Positions 6,760 to 36,339 of a DNA stretch of 40,884 nucleotides are shown here, in pieces; the first letter of the stretch is position 1, and every line of letters begins with the position of its first letter. Made by a program: the position numbers and the translations under genes. The DNA lies in the UHGV virus genome UHGV-2008032; one strand, written 5' to 3'. Under the pieces are notes generated by a model. It did not search any database and was not told the DNA's origin. It saw nothing but the letters and a program-made list of their open reading frames with translations. The stretch is from a virus.

Positions 6760-7056
6760 TCAGTCATTACTGATAGCGCCATAGCGTGAGCGGTAATTAC
6801 GCAGGCGCGGGTCGATATATTCAGGGAAGTGGGTATATGTGGCTTTGCGGAATGGTCGGATTGATGTCTGGTAAATTCGCTCTCGTTCTTCTTTCTCTGC
6901 AAGCCATATACAGTGGCGAAATTCCTTTTCTTCTTTCGTTTCCTGCGGTAGCGACATTATCCGGTCGTAGTTTTTCCTGAATTTATCCAGCACCTCCGAT
7001 ACGGAATTGCCGGAACAGCGGCGCGCGTCGTCCGCACCATACAGAGGCGCTGGCAT
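6760..7056 (-). CDS. Hypothetical early protein
   Basis: 98-aa ORF in the leftward operon. Confidence 0.4.
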   Translation of the reverse strand: MPAPLYGADDARRCSGNSVSEVLDKFRKNYDRIMSLPQETKEEKEFRHCIWLAEKEERERIYQTSIRPFRKATYTHFPEYIDPRLRNYRSRYGAISND

Positions 7057-7069
7057 GATTTTCTCCTGA

Positions 7070-7585
7070 TTAAATTGCGTGAATAGCGTGACGAGGGAAG
7101 GGGAGGGTTACTGGCGCAAAAGGTATATCGTCGTCAAACTCCATAGGTGGTTCGCTGTGATTTACCTGCTTCTGAGGCTGCTGTTTTTGTTGCTGACCGT
7201 TATTTCGCTGAGGTGAAGACTGTTCATTGCTTCCTTGCTTGCCACCAAGCATTTGCATGGTTCCACCAACGCCCACGATAACTTCGGTAGTGAACCGATC
7301 CTGTCCGCTTTGATCCTGCCATTTTCTTGTCCGCAATTTTCCTTCAAGATAAACCTCAGAGCCTTTTCGCAGATATTCGCTGGCAATTTCTGCCAGTTTC
7401 CCGCTCATTACCACACGGTGCCACTCCGTCTGCTCCTTTTGCTCTCCAGTTTGCTTATCACGCCATTGTTCTGACGTAGCAACTATAAGGTTTGCAAATG
7501 CCGTTCCTGATGGTGAATATCTGATTTCTGGATCATGCCCAAGGCGACCAATAATGATCACCTTATTTACGCCTCTACTTCCCAT
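7070..7585 (-). CDS. ssb: Single-stranded DNA-binding protein
   Basis: OB-fold-like N-terminus, Gly/Gln-rich linker, acidic C-terminal tail DDDIPF. Confidence 0.85.
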
Positions 7586-8293
7586 TTATGCCGCCTGTTT
7601 TAGTTCGTTAACTCTGATGTTCATTACCTGAACGCATTTAGCCTGCGCATCCTCATTGCCAGCCATTAATTGCCAGTCATGCTGATAACGTTCTATGAGT
7701 TTTTTCTTGTCAGTTTCTGTTGATGCATAATCGCTGAAGTCTTTCAGGATTTGTTCGCAGTCAACCGATGGAGATTTCTGGTTGGTATTTTCTGGTGATG
7801 GTTTGTTATCTGATGCTGGGATTGCCCAGCCCGGCAGCGATGGAGGGAGCCAGTAAAATCCTGTTCCATCCTTCAGTTTTGCCCTGTGCCACCCCTGTTT
7901 TTTATCGGGAGATGTTTGTGCGAAACCTTCCTCAAGGTTATACAGATACCGACCGATTCCCCACTGAACGGCAGCGCGCTTCATTGCACCGGAACGACCA
8001 CCTTTGACGGCTTCTACCTGCGTGTTTTCAGCAGCATCCCATTTGGTTACCCATTCGGAATCAATCTTTATTGATATGCCGCATTCAACGCCGCCGTTGT
8101 TGGGAATATCGCGGTATTCATTGCGCCATCCTGCTTTGCCACAAACATCGTCAAGGCGTTTCATGATTGCCCGGTTCGTAACATAAGCCAGCACCATAGC
8201 CCACACCTTGCCATCGCGTGTTTTACCGCTTTGCTGTATTCGCCATTCGATATCTTCAGGGCAGAATGGCTCATCGAATTTGTTCAAATCCAT
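7586..8293 (-). CDS. Single-strand annealing recombinase, Rad52/Sak-like
   Basis: Motifs ...GKAGWRNEY...SGAMKRAAVQWGIGRYLY resemble Rad52-family annealing proteins; immediately upstream of ssb. Confidence 0.55.
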   Translation of the reverse strand: MDLNKFDEPFCPEDIEWRIQQSGKTRDGKVWAMVLAYVTNRAIMKRLDDVCGKAGWRNEYRDIPNNGGVECGISIKIDSEWVTKWDAAENTQVEAVKGGRSGAMKRAAVQWGIGRYLYNLEEGFAQTSPDKKQGWHRAKLKDGTGFYWLPPSLPGWAIPASDNKPSPENTNQKSPSVDCEQILKDFSDYASTETDKKKLIERYQHDWQLMAGNEDAQAKCVQVMNIRVNELKQAA

Positions 8294-8392
8294 AATTCAC
8301 CTCAGAATGGACATGGCCCAAGGAAATAACGCTGGTTTAATACTTCGACTCGGGACAAATTAAGGCATACCCGCATTCCTTCGCGGTCACCA

Positions 8393-8551
8393 TTATGGCG
8401 ATACCAGAGAGCTTTCTGCGTGTACATGCGTCTCTGTAACTTGCTCTCCTTCACTGTGGTTGCAAGTGACATGAATATCTCCTTCGTTACCGATTAATTC
8501 TTTCATCTGACGAATGAATTCTTCGTCTGACCAGTTATCTGTAAAACTCAT
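8393..8551 (-). CDS. Small hypothetical protein (52 aa)
   Basis: Hand-translated; ATG overlaps upstream stop (ATGA); below the ORF-track size cut-off. Confidence 0.3.
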   Translation of the reverse strand: MSFTDNWSDEEFIRQMKELIGNEGDIHVTCNHSEGEQVTETHVHAESSLVSP

Positions 8552-8700
8552 TTCCTGCGATACCACGGAATGTTGATCGCTGATTTCATCGCTTTATTTG
8601 CTTCAAGCCACATTTTGGAATCACCAATAAATCTGGCTATTACTGCTTTGTTCTGTGCAGCACGAAGCATCTGGTGATTGATGGCTATTTCATTGCGCAT
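8548..8700 (-). CDS. Small hypothetical protein (50 aa)
   Basis: Hand-translated; GGAGG upstream; stop overlaps next start (ATGA). Confidence 0.3.
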   Translation of the reverse strand: MRNEIAINHQMLRAAQNKAVIARFIGDSKMWLEANKAMKSAINIPWYRRK

Positions 8701-8819
8701 AACGCCTCCAGTTGTTTCTTTGCTGCTCTGATTAATTGTTTAACTCGGCGTGATAATTCAGATTCGTGCGGGTAGAAAGCGGACATGACGCCGCTACCCG
8801 CGAGCTGAAAGTGCATCAT
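8685..8819 (-). CDS. Small hypothetical protein (44 aa)
   Basis: Hand-translated; AGGAG 6 nt upstream of ATG. Confidence 0.3.
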   Translation of the reverse strand: MMHFQLAGSGVMSAFYPHESELSRRVKQLIRAAKKQLEALCAMK

Positions 8820-8902
8820 GGGTAACTCCTTATATTTGATTGCATAACGAAAACGCCTCGAGTGAAGCGTTATTGGTATGCGGTAAAGCCGCGCTCAGGC
8901 GG

Positions 8903-9151
8903 CTACTCTATTTCTTCTTCGAATGATTTTATTAGTCGGTCAATAACATCATCCGTTTCAATATCATTTCCGTCTGATTGCTTTAATACATCTATTGATT
9001 CTGCAGCGGTAAATTCCATCGCTGTGAGAAACTCGACAATTGCACACTCAACGACATATCGTTCTTCATCTGTACGACATGAGATAAAAGAGCATTTAAT
9101 TGCTGTTATTACTTTTTGTTTAAGCTCTGCAGGGTAATCAGTTTTTATCAT
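8903..9151 (-). CDS. Small acidic early protein (82 aa)
   Basis: Strongly acidic C-terminal half (...DGNDIETDDVIDRLIKSFEEEIE); first gene after a leftward terminator. Confidence 0.5.
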   Translation of the reverse strand: MIKTDYPAELKQKVITAIKCSFISCRTDEERYVVECAIVEFLTAMEFTAAESIDVLKQSDGNDIETDDVIDRLIKSFEEEIE

Positions 9152-9163
9152 CGTTTACTCCGT

Positions 9164-9193
9164 CAAAAAAATTGCCCTCACATTAGAGGGCAA
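9164..9193 (-). terminator. Intrinsic terminator in the leftward operon
   Basis: 8-bp stem TTGCCCTC/GAGGGCAA followed on the minus strand by an 8-nt U-run. Confidence 0.6.
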
Positions 9194-9408
9194 AGAAGAT
9201 TTCCAATAATCAGAACAAGTCGGCTCCTGTTTAGTTACGAGCGACATTGCTCCGTGTATTCACTCGTTGGAATGAATACACAGTGCTGTGTTTATTCTGT
9301 TATTTATGCCAAAAATAAAGGCCACTATCAGGCAGCTTTGTTGTTCTATTAACCAAGTTCTCTGGCAATCATTGCCGTCGTTCGTATTGCCCACACCATT
9401 GATTCTTA

Positions 9409-9495
9409 TCAATAGTCGTAGTCATACGGATAGTCCTGGTATTGTTCCATCACATCCTGCGGATGCTCTTCGAACTCTTCAAATTCTTCTTCCAT
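9409..9495 (-). CDS. Very acidic micro-protein (28 aa, MEEEFEEFEEHPQDVMEQYQDYPYDYDY)
   Basis: Hand-translated; GAGGTG 4 nt upstream of ATG. Confidence 0.3.
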   Translation of the reverse strand: MEEEFEEFEEHPQDVMEQYQDYPYDYDY

Positions 9496-9557
9496 ATCTC
9501 ACCTCAAATAAGTGGTTTGCTGCCAAAACAATGAACCATCCGGAAATTCCAGATAGT

Positions 9558-9785
9558 TCATAATTCACTCTTCAATACTTCCAACTTACTAATCGCCGAT
9601 AGATATCCGCGCTGATAGGGCATCATCATTCCTTCGAGCTTGCCACTTCTTAACTCCTCCCTGAGCAATTGTATTGCTTGATCAATAACCTCTGCCTTAG
9701 CGTCCTTTATGGCTTGCTTGCGGGGCTTTGCTTTCTGCTTTGGCAGATTTCTCAAGCATGATGGAATGTATGTCTGATTCATCAC
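9558..9785 (-). CDS. Hypothetical early protein downstream of N-like gene
   Basis: 75-aa ORF abutting the stop of 9786..10058. Confidence 0.4.
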   Translation of the reverse strand: MMNQTYIPSCLRNLPKQKAKPRKQAIKDAKAEVIDQAIQLLREELRSGKLEGMMMPYQRGYLSAISKLEVLKSEL

Positions 9786-10058
9786 TTACCTGGCTGTCAG
9801 TTGTTTTGATTTCCGGTAGCCTGCCGAGTAAATGGCTACGTTTGGCAGGCAAATACTTCCACTGCATTCTTCTGCCTTCTTGCAGCGAAGGCTTCCTAGT
9901 GATGCTGCTTTATCTGCTCTGACGCAACCAGAGAGCTTTAGCGCAATTTTTCGTGACAATCGCTGTTCTTGCATTGCCTGTTCACGTTGAGCCTGTCTGC
10001 GTGCTCTGCGGCGATTTCTGGCGTTATCGTCAGCCAGATATGTAATGACTACTGTCAT
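9786..10058 (-). CDS. N-like antitermination protein (arginine-rich motif)
   Basis: N-terminal NARNRRRARRQAQREQ arginine-rich motif; first gene downstream of PL and nutL, the position of lambda N. Confidence 0.5.
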   Translation of the reverse strand: MTVVITYLADDNARNRRRARRQAQREQAMQEQRLSRKIALKLSGCVRADKAASLGSLRCKKAEECSGSICLPNVAIYSAGYRKSKQLTAR

Positions 10059-10165
10059 GTTGACCTCCGATGATTGACTTTGGCGGTGACGCGCCGGGTG
10101 CTTATCTTCCGGTTGCCGTCGTGCAGCTGCACTTCACGTCACCCCAAAGCCAACTACTCTTTGGT

Positions 10166-10402: not shown

Positions 10403-11044
10403 TCAGGAGAATTTCATCATCATCTGCACTGCTACGCCGATTATCTTGCAGTTGCCGTCGATTGGGATCAACGGATAGGCAGGGTTAAGCCCTTTCAGGT
10501 ATTTGTTACCGCCATCAATGATTAGCTTCTTGAACGTGGCTTCATTAGCATCTGTCAGCTTCGCAACTACCAGGCTTCCATTAACGGCTTCCTTTCCAGT
10601 GTCGAACAGAACCAGCATACCCTCAGGAACGCTAAGGCCGGTAGGAGCTGTCATTGAGTCGCCCTGAACCCTGAGCCAGAAGGCGTCACCGACAACGTGA
10701 CAATCTGATTCATACCACTCATCCACTGCCTGAGGGTTGTACGGCTCTACGGCCTCACTCCATGCACCTGCGCTAACCCAGCTAATCAACGGAAACTTTT
10801 CCCCTGGCTTGTATTGTCCCTGATAGTTGTCGCCAAAAAGCAGTTCTGCCGGAGCGACACCCAAAGCTTTAGCTATTACCTCTGCGTCATCAACACTAAC
10901 GCTTCTGGTTCCTGATTCATAGTTGCCGATCCGAGATTGTGAAGCCCAGCCGCAAAGCTCCGCAAGAGCCTTCTGTGTAAGCCCTTTATCTTCCCGTAAT
11001 CGCTTGATACGCGCGGCGATAGTTTCTGTTCTGTTCATGCGCAT
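10403..11044 (-). CDS. cI: CI-like repressor (HTH plus LexA-like S24 autopeptidase)
   Basis: N-terminal XRE-type HTH; C-terminal GDSM serine and downstream lysine; divergent from cro; -10-like TATAAA abuts the ATG, so the mRNA may be leaderless. Confidence 0.85.
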   Translation of the reverse strand: MRMNRTETIAARIKRLREDKGLTQKALAELCGWASQSRIGNYESGTRSVSVDDAEVIAKALGVAPAELLFGDNYQGQYKPGEKFPLISWVSAGAWSEAVEPYNPQAVDEWYESDCHVVGDAFWLRVQGDSMTAPTGLSVPEGMLVLFDTGKEAVNGSLVVAKLTDANEATFKKLIIDGGNKYLKGLNPAYPLIPIDGNCKIIGVAVQMMMKFS

Positions 11045-34146: not shown

Positions 34147-34334
34147 CCTTCAACAGCCTGCCGGGCGGTGAAGATTTTATTCTTCGTCCGGCGCTTGCCT
34201 TCCAGATTGACCAGAAAGACCTTAACAGCGGTGCGGTAGACCTCTGCCGCATCGCGCTTCTCAATGACTACCTCGACATGCGCGAGGATAACGACGCCCG
34301 GGTAGATAAATGGAGAGCGGCCAATGAGCGGTAA
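34095..34334 (+). other. Programmed -1 frameshift site T_TTT_TTG and -1 frame extension of the tail chaperone
   Basis: Heptamer 34095..34101 in the zero frame (aaT TTT TTG); -1 frame is open from there to TAA 34332..34334, which overlaps the tape measure start. Confidence 0.55.
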
Positions 34335-36339
34335 CGCAGATACGATTAAAGATTTCCTTGTTTCGCTGGGATTCGATATCGATCAGGCTGGCGCTAATAA
34401 GTTTGAAGCCGTGCTGAAAGGCGTTACCGCGAACGTTCTGAAGGTCGGCGCGGTGGTGAAAGGCGCAGCGCTGAGCATTGTCGGATTTACCACCCAGATC
34501 GCGAATGGTCTGGATAAAATTTACTGGGCATCCCAGCGGACGGGGGCCAGCGTCCAGGGCATCAAAGCGCTGGGCTATGCCGCATCGCAAACTGGCGCCA
34601 GCGCTGAGTCGGCCATGTCCTCCCTCGAAGGGTTGGCTGGCTTCATGCGTAGCAATCCGGGGGCGGAAGGGTTCCTGAACCGTCTTGGTGTCCAGACCCG
34701 CGATGCCAGCGGAAAGATGCGTGATACTGCTGCCATCTTTACTGGCGTTGGGCAAAAGCTCAACAACATGCCGTATTACCGCGCGAAGCAATACGCGCAG
34801 ATGCTCGGCATCGATGAAAACACGCTGATGGCGATGCGCAGAGGGATGGGGCAGCTCAGTTCTGAGTACGCGTTGACGGCAAAGCGTATTGGTTTTAATG
34901 CTGAGTCAGCGGCTAAACAGTCCAATATTTTCATGACCTCCATGCGTAATCTGACGATGACGCTTGGACAGGCGAAAGACAAGATTGGCTCTAACCTAGC
35001 TGGTGGCCTTGCTGGCAGCATTGATAACTTCCGCAGGCAGATACTCGACAACTGGCCGAAGATTGAAGCGGTCATCACGAAGATCATCAAAGGAATTCTC
35101 TGGGCAGGTGACGCGATTACCCGCGTGTTATGGCGAACTGGGCAAGCTGTTGAGGGTGTGATCGCCTGGTTCAAAAAGCTGAACCCAGCCACGCAGCAGC
35201 TTATCGCATTGTTCAGTGGGCTGTTGGTTGCATGGCGGCTGCTAAATACCGCTTTCATGTCATCACCCTTGGGCATGATAACGACGCTTATTATTGCACT
35301 TGGTCTGCTCTTTGATGATTACCAGACGTGGAAAGAAGGTGGCAAAAGCCTGATTGACTGGGGGAAATGGAAGACTGAAATTGATCAGGCCGTCAAAATG
35401 ATTGGTGACCTGAAAAAGACTGTTACGGACCTGACAAAAGCGCTGGCTAAGTTGCTCGGTATTGACCCCAAGTCATGGTCCCTAAAGTGGGATTTTAGCA
35501 ACTTCATTTCGCAAATGGGTGAGTTCGGCAAGATGCTGAACATGATCGCCGACCTGCTCAACGCCATTAAAGATGGCCGCTGGGCTGATGCCGCCAGCAT
35601 CGGCAAACAGATGCTTAATCAGGGCAGCGAAAATCCGTCAGCGATGCCGATGGTAACAGACAGCGCCAACGGAACCGCCGACTGGATTAAAGAGCACTGG
35701 GGATTCGATCCTCGCAGCGTGGGCCGAACGGTGCGCGGCTGGTTCGGTGATGATGAGCCTGAACAGCTCGGCCAGTCAGTTAAGCGGCCACAGCCAACCA
35801 AAGCAGGCTCTGAACTGCTGGGATGGATGCAGCCGATGTTTACCAACCTGGAACAGCTCTACCGGCTTCCGGAGGGGTTATTGCGCAGCGTGGCCATAAC
35901 GGAATCGGGCGGTAATCAGTTCGCCGTTTCAGGCGCTGGCGCGAAAGGTCTGTTTCAGTTTATGGATGGCACGGCGCGCGACATGGGCCTGCGTGGCAAT
36001 GATGTATTCGACCCGGAAAAGTCAGCTCAGGCAGCCGCTAAGTACCTCAGCCAGCTGTTGCGGCAGAACGGCGGAGACCTTAGCAAAGCACTGGCATCAT
36101 ATAACTGGGGGATCGGGAATGTTAAGCGTTATGGAATGGGGCTAATGCCGCAGGAAACGCGCAACTACATTCCGAAAGTAATGAGCAATATGCCCACCAG
36201 CGCCCCGGTGATTCAGCAGGAAACGAATATTAACATCCACGGTGTTTCCGATCCGCGTGAAGCTGCCCGTTTGACTGTTGACCGTCAAAAGGGCGTGAAT
36301 TCACAGTTAACCCAGCAACTCCCCGCAGGACCGAGATAA
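34324..36339 (+). CDS. Tail tape measure protein with C-terminal lytic transglycosylase-like domain
   Basis: 671 aa; central hydrophobic segments; C-terminal ...ITESGGNQFAVSGAGAKGLFQFMDGTARDMGL...NWGIGN... SLT-like. Confidence 0.75.
   Translation: MSGNADTIKDFLVSLGFDIDQAGANKFEAVLKGVTANVLKVGAVVKGAALSIVGFTTQIANGLDKIYWASQRTGASVQGIKALGYAASQTGASAESAMSSLEGLAGFMRSNPGAEGFLNRLGVQTRDASGKMRDTAAIFTGVGQKLNNMPYYRAKQYAQMLGIDENTLMAMRRGMGQLSSEYALTAKRIGFNAESAAKQSNIFMTSMRNLTMTLGQAKDKIGSNLAGGLAGSIDNFRRQILDNWPKIEAVITKIIKGILWAGDAITRVLWRTGQAVEGVIAWFKKLNPATQQLIALFSGLLVAWRLLNTAFMSSPLGMITTLIIALGLLFDDYQTWKEGGKSLIDWGKWKTEIDQAVKMIGDLKKTVTDLTKALAKLLGIDPKSWSLKWDFSNFISQMGEFGKMLNMIADLLNAIKDGRWADAASIGKQMLNQGSENPSAMPMVTDSANGTADWIKEHWGFDPRSVGRTVRGWFGDDEPEQLGQSVKRPQPTKAGSELLGWMQPMFTNLEQLYRLPEGLLRSVAITESGGNQFAVSGAGAKGLFQFMDGTARDMGLRGNDVFDPEKSAQAAAKYLSQLLRQNGGDLSKALASYNWGIGNVKRYGMGLMPQETRNYIPKVMSNMPTSAPVIQQETNINIHGVSDPREAARLTVDRQKGVNSQLTQQLPAGPR

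Follow-up and report, generated by a model that had tools for sequence, protein, structure and literature searches.

The interval 8903-9495 of the virus genome UHGV-2008032 comprises two genuine protein-coding accessory genes of the pL operon, orf82 and orf28, with a small RNA gene and a dead ral gene lying between them. In the account that we favour overall, with a confidence somewhat short of even, the product of orf82 would be a protein-binding inhibitor, and orf28 would be a translated micro-gene located beside the dead ral. Both ORFs are already present in public annotation; the analysis newly provides evidence that orf28 is under selection, identifies the ral pseudogene and the small RNA PreS within the interval, and finds the "anti-restriction" label of orf82 to be unsupported. 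All coordinates refer to the window, that is, to the whole stretch of 40,884 nucleotides that was analysed.

Gene content of the early leftward operon

To judge by its sequence, the window belongs to a lambdoid phage. Escherichia phage ECP1 (Wongtaivirus) has the same gene order and is 99.4% identical over positions 8700-10100, and the mosaic relatives of this stretch are lambda, P22, HK446, mEpX2, and Stx phages. In the order of the early leftward operon, with all genes on the minus strand, the cI-like repressor (10403-11044) is followed by the N-like antiterminator (9786-10058; PF25694, E = 2e-15) and by orf75 (9558-9785), which encodes a basic 75-aa protein of phrog_5305 with no function assigned and occupies the position of lambda sieB. 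Then come orf28 (9409-9495; 28 aa, phrog_16060), the ral pseudogene (9328-9425, with its ATG at 9425), a copy of PreS (LPR1; approximately 9165-9253, the 5' limit being approximate), an intrinsic terminator located by a terminator scan (9172-9193), and orf82 (8903-9151; 82 aa, phrog_14587), the coordinates of orf28 and orf82 being those of the ORF list. The operon continues with cIII (8685-8819; PF08134, E = 2e-30), kil (8548-8700; PF06301, E = 2e-20), two small ORFs, a Rad52-like annealase (7586-8293), SSB (7070-7585), and a full-length gene for the anti-RecBCD protein Abc2 (6760-7056; PF11043, E = 4e-61).

The original prediction described two acidic ORFs in this interval and proposed that they are DNA mimics or anti-restriction factors. 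Both ORFs were confirmed on the minus strand with the boundaries given above. However, they are not the first genes after N, as had been claimed, because the basic orf75 precedes both of them, and the ral pseudogene, the PreS copy, and the intrinsic terminator lying in the same interval had been overlooked.

Calculation of the net charge, suggested as a check of that proposal, identified both products as extreme outliers in the window. The orf82 protein contains 20 Asp or Glu and 9 Lys or Arg residues (net charge -11, pI 4.27) and is the most acidic per residue among 180 window ORFs of at least 60 aa; its C-terminal half, correctly described as acidic, has 13 acidic and 3 basic residues. The orf28 peptide, MEEEFEEFEEHPQDVMEQYQDYPYDYDY, contains 8 Glu, 4 Asp, and 5 Tyr residues and neither Lys nor Arg, and its net charge of -12 is the extreme among 300 window ORFs of 20-40 aa, the runner-up having a net charge of -3. 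The peptide is strongly acidic indeed, whereas its description as consisting almost entirely of Glu, Asp, and Tyr was overstated, as these residues occupy 17 of the 28 positions (61%). Charge alone is weak evidence, since many small phage proteins are acidic. Both ORFs have good Shine-Dalgarno sequences that can be read directly from the minus strand, namely GAGGTGA at 9499-9505, located 3 nt before the ATG of orf28, and GGAG at 9158-9161, located 6 nt before the ATG of orf82.

The PreS copy separates orf28 and ral from orf82. Over positions 9330-9166, which extend from the stop codon of ral through the T-run of the terminator, the window has only 4 differences from lambda, which indicates that it carries PreS, and the 3' end of the latter is formed by a GC-rich hairpin (9193-9172) and a T-run that constitute the early-left-operon terminator. 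In lambda, PreS is an Hfq-dependent sRNA encoded between ral and ea10 and ending at this terminator; it is about 88 nt long, is processed to about 68 nt, raises the translation of host dnaN, and represses alaS (bioRxiv 10.1101/2024.10.31.621285). The same paper names the terminator tL2a; here it is designated by its position (9172-9193) only. No family in Rfam matches the PreS region. Given a terminator between the two ORFs, orf28 would be expressed from transcripts that stop there, and orf82 would require N-dependent read-through. Beyond the T-run, in the direction of orf82, the window is unrelated to lambda, and the ea10/orf82 cassette begins at this point.

Substitution pattern of orf28 and its linkage to ral

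The orf28 peptide is identical to that of lambda orf28 (lambdap47, NP_040623) and matches phrog_16060 over its full length (E = 7e-19, residues 1-28). The lambda gene is annotated at 34271-34357 and overlaps the start of ral by 17 nt. Peptide, position, and overlap are thus the same in both phages, but the downstream ral is intact in lambda and is a frameshifted remnant in the window. No match to orf28 was found in Pfam, NCBIfam, or PADLOC, and it has no sequence match to P22 Abc2 (PF11043). Although lambda is the best-studied phage, its orf28 has been annotated for decades without a function, and no functional study of it was found in the literature; a CRISPRi map scored the gene as non-essential. 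Published expression data were found neither for orf28 nor for orf82, and PGAP leaves orf28 uncalled in E. coli genomes.

We collected 84 oriented loci, mostly from IMG/VR, that were anchored on the ral start. Relatives of orf28 were gathered by DNA search; the default low-complexity filter of tblastn probably masks the peptide. The 28-codon frame is intact in 80 of the 84 loci, including all 20 scorable loci with a ral deletion. Fifteen of its 84 nt are variable, and 11 of these 15 sites occupy the third codon position (binomial p = 0.0018). Among distinct changes, 11 are synonymous (on 10.7 sites) and 8 are non-synonymous (on 73.3 sites). The pN/pS ratio over 80 loci, which is not a formal dN/dS because the loci are related, diversity is low, and allele counts do not represent independent events, is approximately 0.11 in the orf28 frame, whereas the two alternative frames give 1.2 and 2.3. 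This is still a strong selection signal for a gene of only 28 codons.

Within the part of orf28 that does not overlap ral, the frequent non-synonymous changes replace Glu by Asp, and all others occur in only 1-2 loci each. A Tyr-to-Cys change observed in 7 loci falls within the ral overlap, where it also changes residue 3 of Ral from Thr to Ala. An antisense ORF (9442-9534) is not the source of the pattern, since the third codon position of orf28 corresponds to the first position of this ORF. We conclude from the concentration of substitutions at synonymous sites that orf28 is translated into a peptide whose sequence is important; very probably, the peptide is made and is under purifying selection. 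Non-translation of the 28-aa ORF had been named as an outcome that would speak against the proposed role, and here the low pN/pS and the strong ribosome-binding site point in the opposite direction. In species-representative genomes, a degenerate orf28 pattern was found mostly in contigs resembling lambda DNA contamination, which have little bearing on host range.

The alignment columns upstream of approximately position 81 are hypervariable, and columns 81-95 are conserved across the loci. The corresponding mosaic boundary lies roughly 15 nt upstream of the orf28 ATG, just beyond the Shine-Dalgarno sequence, and the homology to lambda starts about 20 nt before this ATG; the elements downstream of the boundary, namely the ribosome-binding site, orf28, and the start of ral, are conserved across the loci. 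The stop codon of orf28 is located 14 nt inside the ral frame, the last 17 nt of the gene overlapping the ral start. In the phage collection, orf28 is always paired with the ral start and was never seen alone, and Stx phages and mEp213 have only the upstream junction in common with the orf28-ral loci. The common upstream mosaic boundary, the strong ribosome-binding site of the module itself, and the overlap show that orf28 and ral constitute one inherited module.

A predicted RNA hairpin (9391-9421, minus strand) spans ral codons 2-12 together with the stop codon of orf28. Minimum-free-energy folding yields this hairpin for the lambda RNA as well as for the window RNA, and the two natural stem variants (A to G and G to A) preserve its pairing. 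This hairpin may serve the translational coupling of orf28 and ral, for which the folds are suggestive only. Ral is active on its own under ectopic expression, and thus orf28 is not required for Ral activity.

In comparison with lambda, ral in the window has lost 103 bp between TGGRCAAT direct repeats, the junction copy being at 9386-9393. The deletion shifts the frame and leaves an 18-codon ORF, MTTTIDKNQWCGQYERRQ, terminated by a stop codon, whereas the 3' part of ral persists out of frame. As read from these frames, ral is dead in this phage and orf28 is intact. The identical 18-codon allele is found in 21 of the 84 loci, and the deletion junction, counted when at least 80% of a junction-spanning query was covered, is present in 318 of 5,426 complete E. 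coli genomes. In PGAP annotation, the deleted ral appears as a 16-aa "antirestriction Ral family protein". In six of six sampled loci, several of which are the same phage, orf82 occurs alongside the ral deletion; the orf82 gene of HK446 has a different upstream context.

The orf82 family and its annotation

Homology of the window to lambda ends 15 nt upstream of the orf82 start (at 9166) and is back exactly at its stop (8903), which indicates a clean gene-for-gene replacement of ea10. Lambda Ea10 (DUF2528) occupies this slot, which is bounded by the PreS terminator and cIII, and is also acidic, but it has no sequence similarity to orf82 and is 122-125 aa long rather than 82 aa. In the 21 loci where cIII was located, the slot between ral and cIII is occupied by at least six alternative cassettes. 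Most of these cassettes are strongly acidic (net charge -13 for Ea10, -11 for orf82, and -7 to -14 for the others); acidity is frequent in this slot and hence is not diagnostic.

The phrog_14587 profile matches orf82 from end to end (E = 2.2e-48, residues 1-82 on positions 1-82). On the other hand, orf82 has no match in Pfam, NCBIfam, or PADLOC, and none of 46 family members has a match in Pfam. The family is small: a search of 1.8 billion proteins yielded 17 representatives at 50% identity, and at 90% identity there are 52 clusters, all of them named hypothetical. Early operons encode its members, both in temperate phages of enterobacteria and in siphophages of Salmonella and Klebsiella; at about 40% identity, relatives are found in siphophages of Salmonella (Saltrevirus type), Klebsiella, and Enterobacter. 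In particular, the homologue in Salmonella phage 64795_sal3 opens an operon beside a divergent intergenic region, the siphophage homologues adjoin ParB-like and RusA genes, and those of Pantoea and E. coli prophages lie amid small ORFs near Erf/SSB or RecT/YqaJ and an integrase. The net charge is negative in all family members (from -3 to -23, with a mean of -12.7). Acidic residues are conserved at positions 40, 49-51, 65, 67, 68, 71, and 79, and Ala17 and Cys25 are invariant.

With an alignment of 46 sequences, AlphaFold predicted a four-helix bundle for orf82 (pLDDT 92.3, pTM 0.81); this model superseded the poor one obtained from the single sequence (pLDDT 59). By this prediction, orf82 is a real, folded, acidic protein. 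A Foldseek comparison of the model with PDB yielded nothing below E = 0.9, and the matches in BFVD are uncharacterised family members only. Structure prediction, which had been recommended as a further check, thus produced a confident fold and no informative structural relative. No similarity in sequence or fold was detected to Ral, Ocr, ArdA, Gam, or any solved structure; comparison with the colicin DNase immunity proteins (Im7 type) gave no significant match in sequence or fold, and comparison with P22 Abc2 (PF11043) gave no sequence match.

The GenBank record of ECP1 labels orf82 as "antirestriction protein ral", and RefSeq calls orf82 and its relatives "anti-restriction protein", the wording being the same as in the phrog_14587 label. 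In contrast, the family is "hypothetical" or "uncharacterized" according to NCBI, PGAP, and UniProt. The candidate assignment of orf82 as a Ral homologue was rejected (hhalign probability 0.07%, no match to PF11058); the true ral remnant is located about 220 bp upstream of orf82. We found no member of phrog_14587 with experimental support for restriction alleviation, and the label is unsupported by any evidence found. It is spreading through RefSeq phage records and is unfit for inferring counter-defence content.

The stretch considered here is classed by Silas et al. as an accessory region containing ral. According to the text of that study, 200 accessory genes were synthesised and expressed in wild ECOR E. 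coli, and conditional lethality and sensitisation were scored with 8 phages in 45 phage-host pairs. One of these genes, UDP0194/orf194, is HK446 AFH20664.1, which is identical to orf82. As hits, the text names orf7, 24, 48, 63, 92, 98, 116, 126, 143, 145, 148, and 184, and the controls named among the hits include Ocr, Ral, and ArdA. The named hits do not include orf194, and Supplementary File 3 has blank follow-up columns for this gene but filled ones for hits such as orf184. Absence from the hits named there is limited negative evidence, and it is clearest against type I restriction-modification (R-M) inhibition, since the screen did detect inhibition of this kind.

Candidate functions of the two proteins

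For orf82, we tentatively propose an inhibitor that blocks a basic surface and acts as a host-takeover or counter-defence factor, although we give this role rather less than an even chance. The protein would be produced after N has enabled transcription to proceed beyond the PreS terminator, and it would act stoichiometrically by binding to a protein. The conserved acidic surface would occupy a basic, probably nucleic-acid-binding, surface of a protein of the host or of a rival element. On present evidence, this target is probably neither type I R-M nor RecBCD. Genes of this accessory region do meet host immunity. The mEp213 gene orf184 (AFM76385) occupies the exact position of orf28-ral, with the same upstream junction and ribosome-binding site, and its product is strongly acidic as well (net charge -17), but it is 107 aa long and unrelated in sequence. 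As described in the text of Silas et al., orf184 triggers the gop-beta-cII abortive system, being a trigger and not an inhibitor of defence.

The original idea that orf82, orf28, or both are DNA mimics or direct inhibitors of R-M or RecBCD was a reasonable guess. By the common size and charge criterion for DNA mimics (small, with pI below 5 and a large negative charge), orf82 fits, and orf28 has a net charge of -12; the strong negative charge is kept across the orf82 family. T7 Ocr, T7 gp5.9, T4 Arn, and lambda Gam resemble orf82 in being small, early, and strongly negative with a pI near 4, and size and charge density are within the range of Arn and Ocr. Moreover, the genes are set in a ral accessory region within an operon that also contains Abc2, orf28 is physically coupled to ral, and the loss of ral could leave a vacancy for another anti-restriction function. 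Precedents among small proteins are T7 gp5.9, a 52-aa acidic RecBCD inhibitor, and T4 Stp, a 26-aa early peptide acting on the type Ic R-M enzyme EcoprrI. The latter is, like orf28, shorter than 30 aa, but it lacks both acidic character and similarity to orf28; this is an analogy only. Nevertheless, no sequence or fold similarity of orf82 was detected to the four acidic proteins listed above, nor to Ral, ArdA, or other solved inhibitors. Ral (PF11058), which belongs to the same operon and module as orf28, alleviates type I restriction and enhances modification, yet it is basic (net charge +3, pI 8.8) and no DNA mimic, whereas orf82 is acidic and unrelated to it. The screen of Silas et al. caught Ocr, Ral, and ArdA, and orf194 is not a hit named in its text. 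RecBCD modulation is already supplied by Abc2, and the "anti-restriction" label is both without support and contradicted by the NCBI, PGAP, and UniProt names. Taken together, direct inhibition or mimicry of this kind by either protein appears quite unlikely to us; for orf82 in particular, restriction and RecBCD are mildly disfavoured.

A role of orf82 in the early programme of the phage itself, in connection with the Rad52-like annealase, SSB, and Abc2 or with cIII and kil, is suggested by its location next to cIII/kil and upstream of the recombination genes, and by the homologues found beside Erf/SSB or RecT/YqaJ in other prophages. In P22-type operons, this region encodes small recombination cofactors, Arf being an example, and an ORF neighbouring orf82 has a weak Arf-like match; furthermore, no defence phenotype is reported for orf82 in the text of the screen. 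However, orf82 is swappable, being found with Rad52-like, Erf, and RecT systems and with ParB-like and RusA neighbours. The association of one cassette with differing recombination systems argues against a specific phage partner, and the same slot in lambda holds the unrelated ea10, which is non-essential in the CRISPRi map. We consider such a role unlikely. Still less can be said for the view that one or both ORFs are unexpressed and their composition is accidental. It could draw on the failure of PGAP to call orf28 and on the lack of published expression data, but the strong ribosome-binding sites of both ORFs, the purifying selection in the orf28 frame, the fold with a pLDDT of 92 that the family-wide alignment yields for orf82, and the extreme charge of both products within the window make it extremely improbable.

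As for orf28, ribosomes finishing its translation would open the hairpin that covers the ral start and promote the translation of ral. The substitution pattern suggests in addition that the peptide itself has a selected function, for which we would put the chances modestly above even. The most economical guess is that it modulates Ral or the type I R-M target of Ral. In this phage, orf28 would either act alone or be a remnant that has not yet decayed. A simpler possibility is that orf28 is a leader ORF only, the translation of which delivers ribosomes to ral while the peptide is functionless, so that the copy in the window is a leftover. Such a leader would agree with the 17-nt overlap of orf28 and ral in lambda, with the hairpin across the orf28 stop and the early ral codons, and with the co-inheritance of the two genes downstream of a mosaic boundary lying just upstream of the ribosome-binding site. 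N-terminal acidic runs are reported to destabilise translating ribosomes and would suit a regulatory leader. But a leader would not need its amino-acid sequence, and yet the substitutions are mainly synonymous along the whole ORF, and intact orf28 is retained in each of the 20 scorable loci with a ral deletion. These observations leave the pure leader doubtful.

The selection on orf28 and its linkage to ral make a simple genetic test worthwhile, and if either orf28 or orf82 did inhibit a host system, it could represent a new family of small inhibitors. A combined variant, which we regard as distinctly improbable, is that orf28 encodes a functional micro-protein acting independently of Ral and that orf82 is the first member of a novel family of inhibitors, its target lying beyond the screened systems. 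In that case, the alternating carboxylate and Tyr/Phe side chains of the orf28 peptide might imitate either a strand of nucleic acid or an acidic tail of the SSB type and block a host DNA-handling or defence protein. Action of orf28 independent of Ral, if true, would explain the presence of the intact gene in many prophages with deleted ral.

RNA elements and the ral remnant around the acidic ORFs

The two acidic ORFs of the early leftward operon, orf28 (9409-9495, minus strand) and orf82 (8903-9151, minus strand), are separated by a copy of PreS/LPR1 with its terminator hairpin (9165-9253, minus strand), which is nearly identical to the Hfq-dependent sRNA of phage lambda. Alignment of window positions 9330-9166 with lambda revealed four differing positions, and a search of the PreS region against Rfam 15 returned no matching family. 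In IMG/VR loci (L004-L089), the ral-to-cIII slot, on the downstream side of this terminator, is filled by at least six alternative cassettes, the majority of which code for strongly acidic proteins (net charge -7 to -14).

The ral gene itself is a pseudogene (9328-9425, minus strand), its frame being shifted by a 103-bp deletion bounded by TGGRCAAT direct repeats. The same deletion junction was observed in 318 of the 5,426 complete E. coli genomes.

A perfect 14-bp hairpin (9531-9561, minus strand; stem arms ATGAACTATCTGGA and TCCGGATGGTTCAT, loop ATT) begins in the final codons of orf75, the basic ORF upstream of orf28, spans its stop codon and runs on downstream. The surrounding RNA has a folding z-score of -4.1. 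The hairpin may function as a processing site or terminator and forms part of the orf75 module, not that of orf28.

Recombination and anti-RecBCD genes

The operon of the acidic ORFs also contains a full-length P22-type anti-RecBCD gene, Abc2 (6760-7056, minus strand; PF11043, E 4e-61). In the phage SSB (7070-7585, minus strand) the usual acidic tip DDDIPF is present; it is internal and not C-terminal, because 16 further residues follow it. Between kil and the Rad52-like annealase lie two small overlapping ORFs of 57 and 56 aa (8302-8566, minus strand), assigned to phrog_2123 and phrog_1723, respectively, both labeled 'recombinase'. The former shows a faint Arf-like match, and the latter has a close relative, orf168, in the library of accessory phage genes of Silas et al.

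Database names and distant matches

Several product names in the GenBank record of Escherichia phage ECP1 (KY979108) disagree with the Pfam matches of the same genes. The name 'cIII protein' is placed on a 56-aa ORF and the real cIII and kil are named 'hypothetical'; 'replication protein O' is attached to the gene called CII-like in the RefSeq copy of the record, and 'antirestriction protein ral' is placed on orf82. The PGAP name 'antirestriction Ral family protein' refers to the 16-aa ral stump.

A search of species-representative genomes with a degenerate orf28 pattern (matches L096-L118) detected contigs of unrelated taxa, among them Pseudoxanthomonas, Nocardioides, Shewanella, Paenibacillus, and a Segatella MAG. 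Most of these contigs look like phage lambda DNA contaminating the assemblies; several are approximately 48.4-48.5 kb long and of low coverage (about 1x in one, according to the contig titles).
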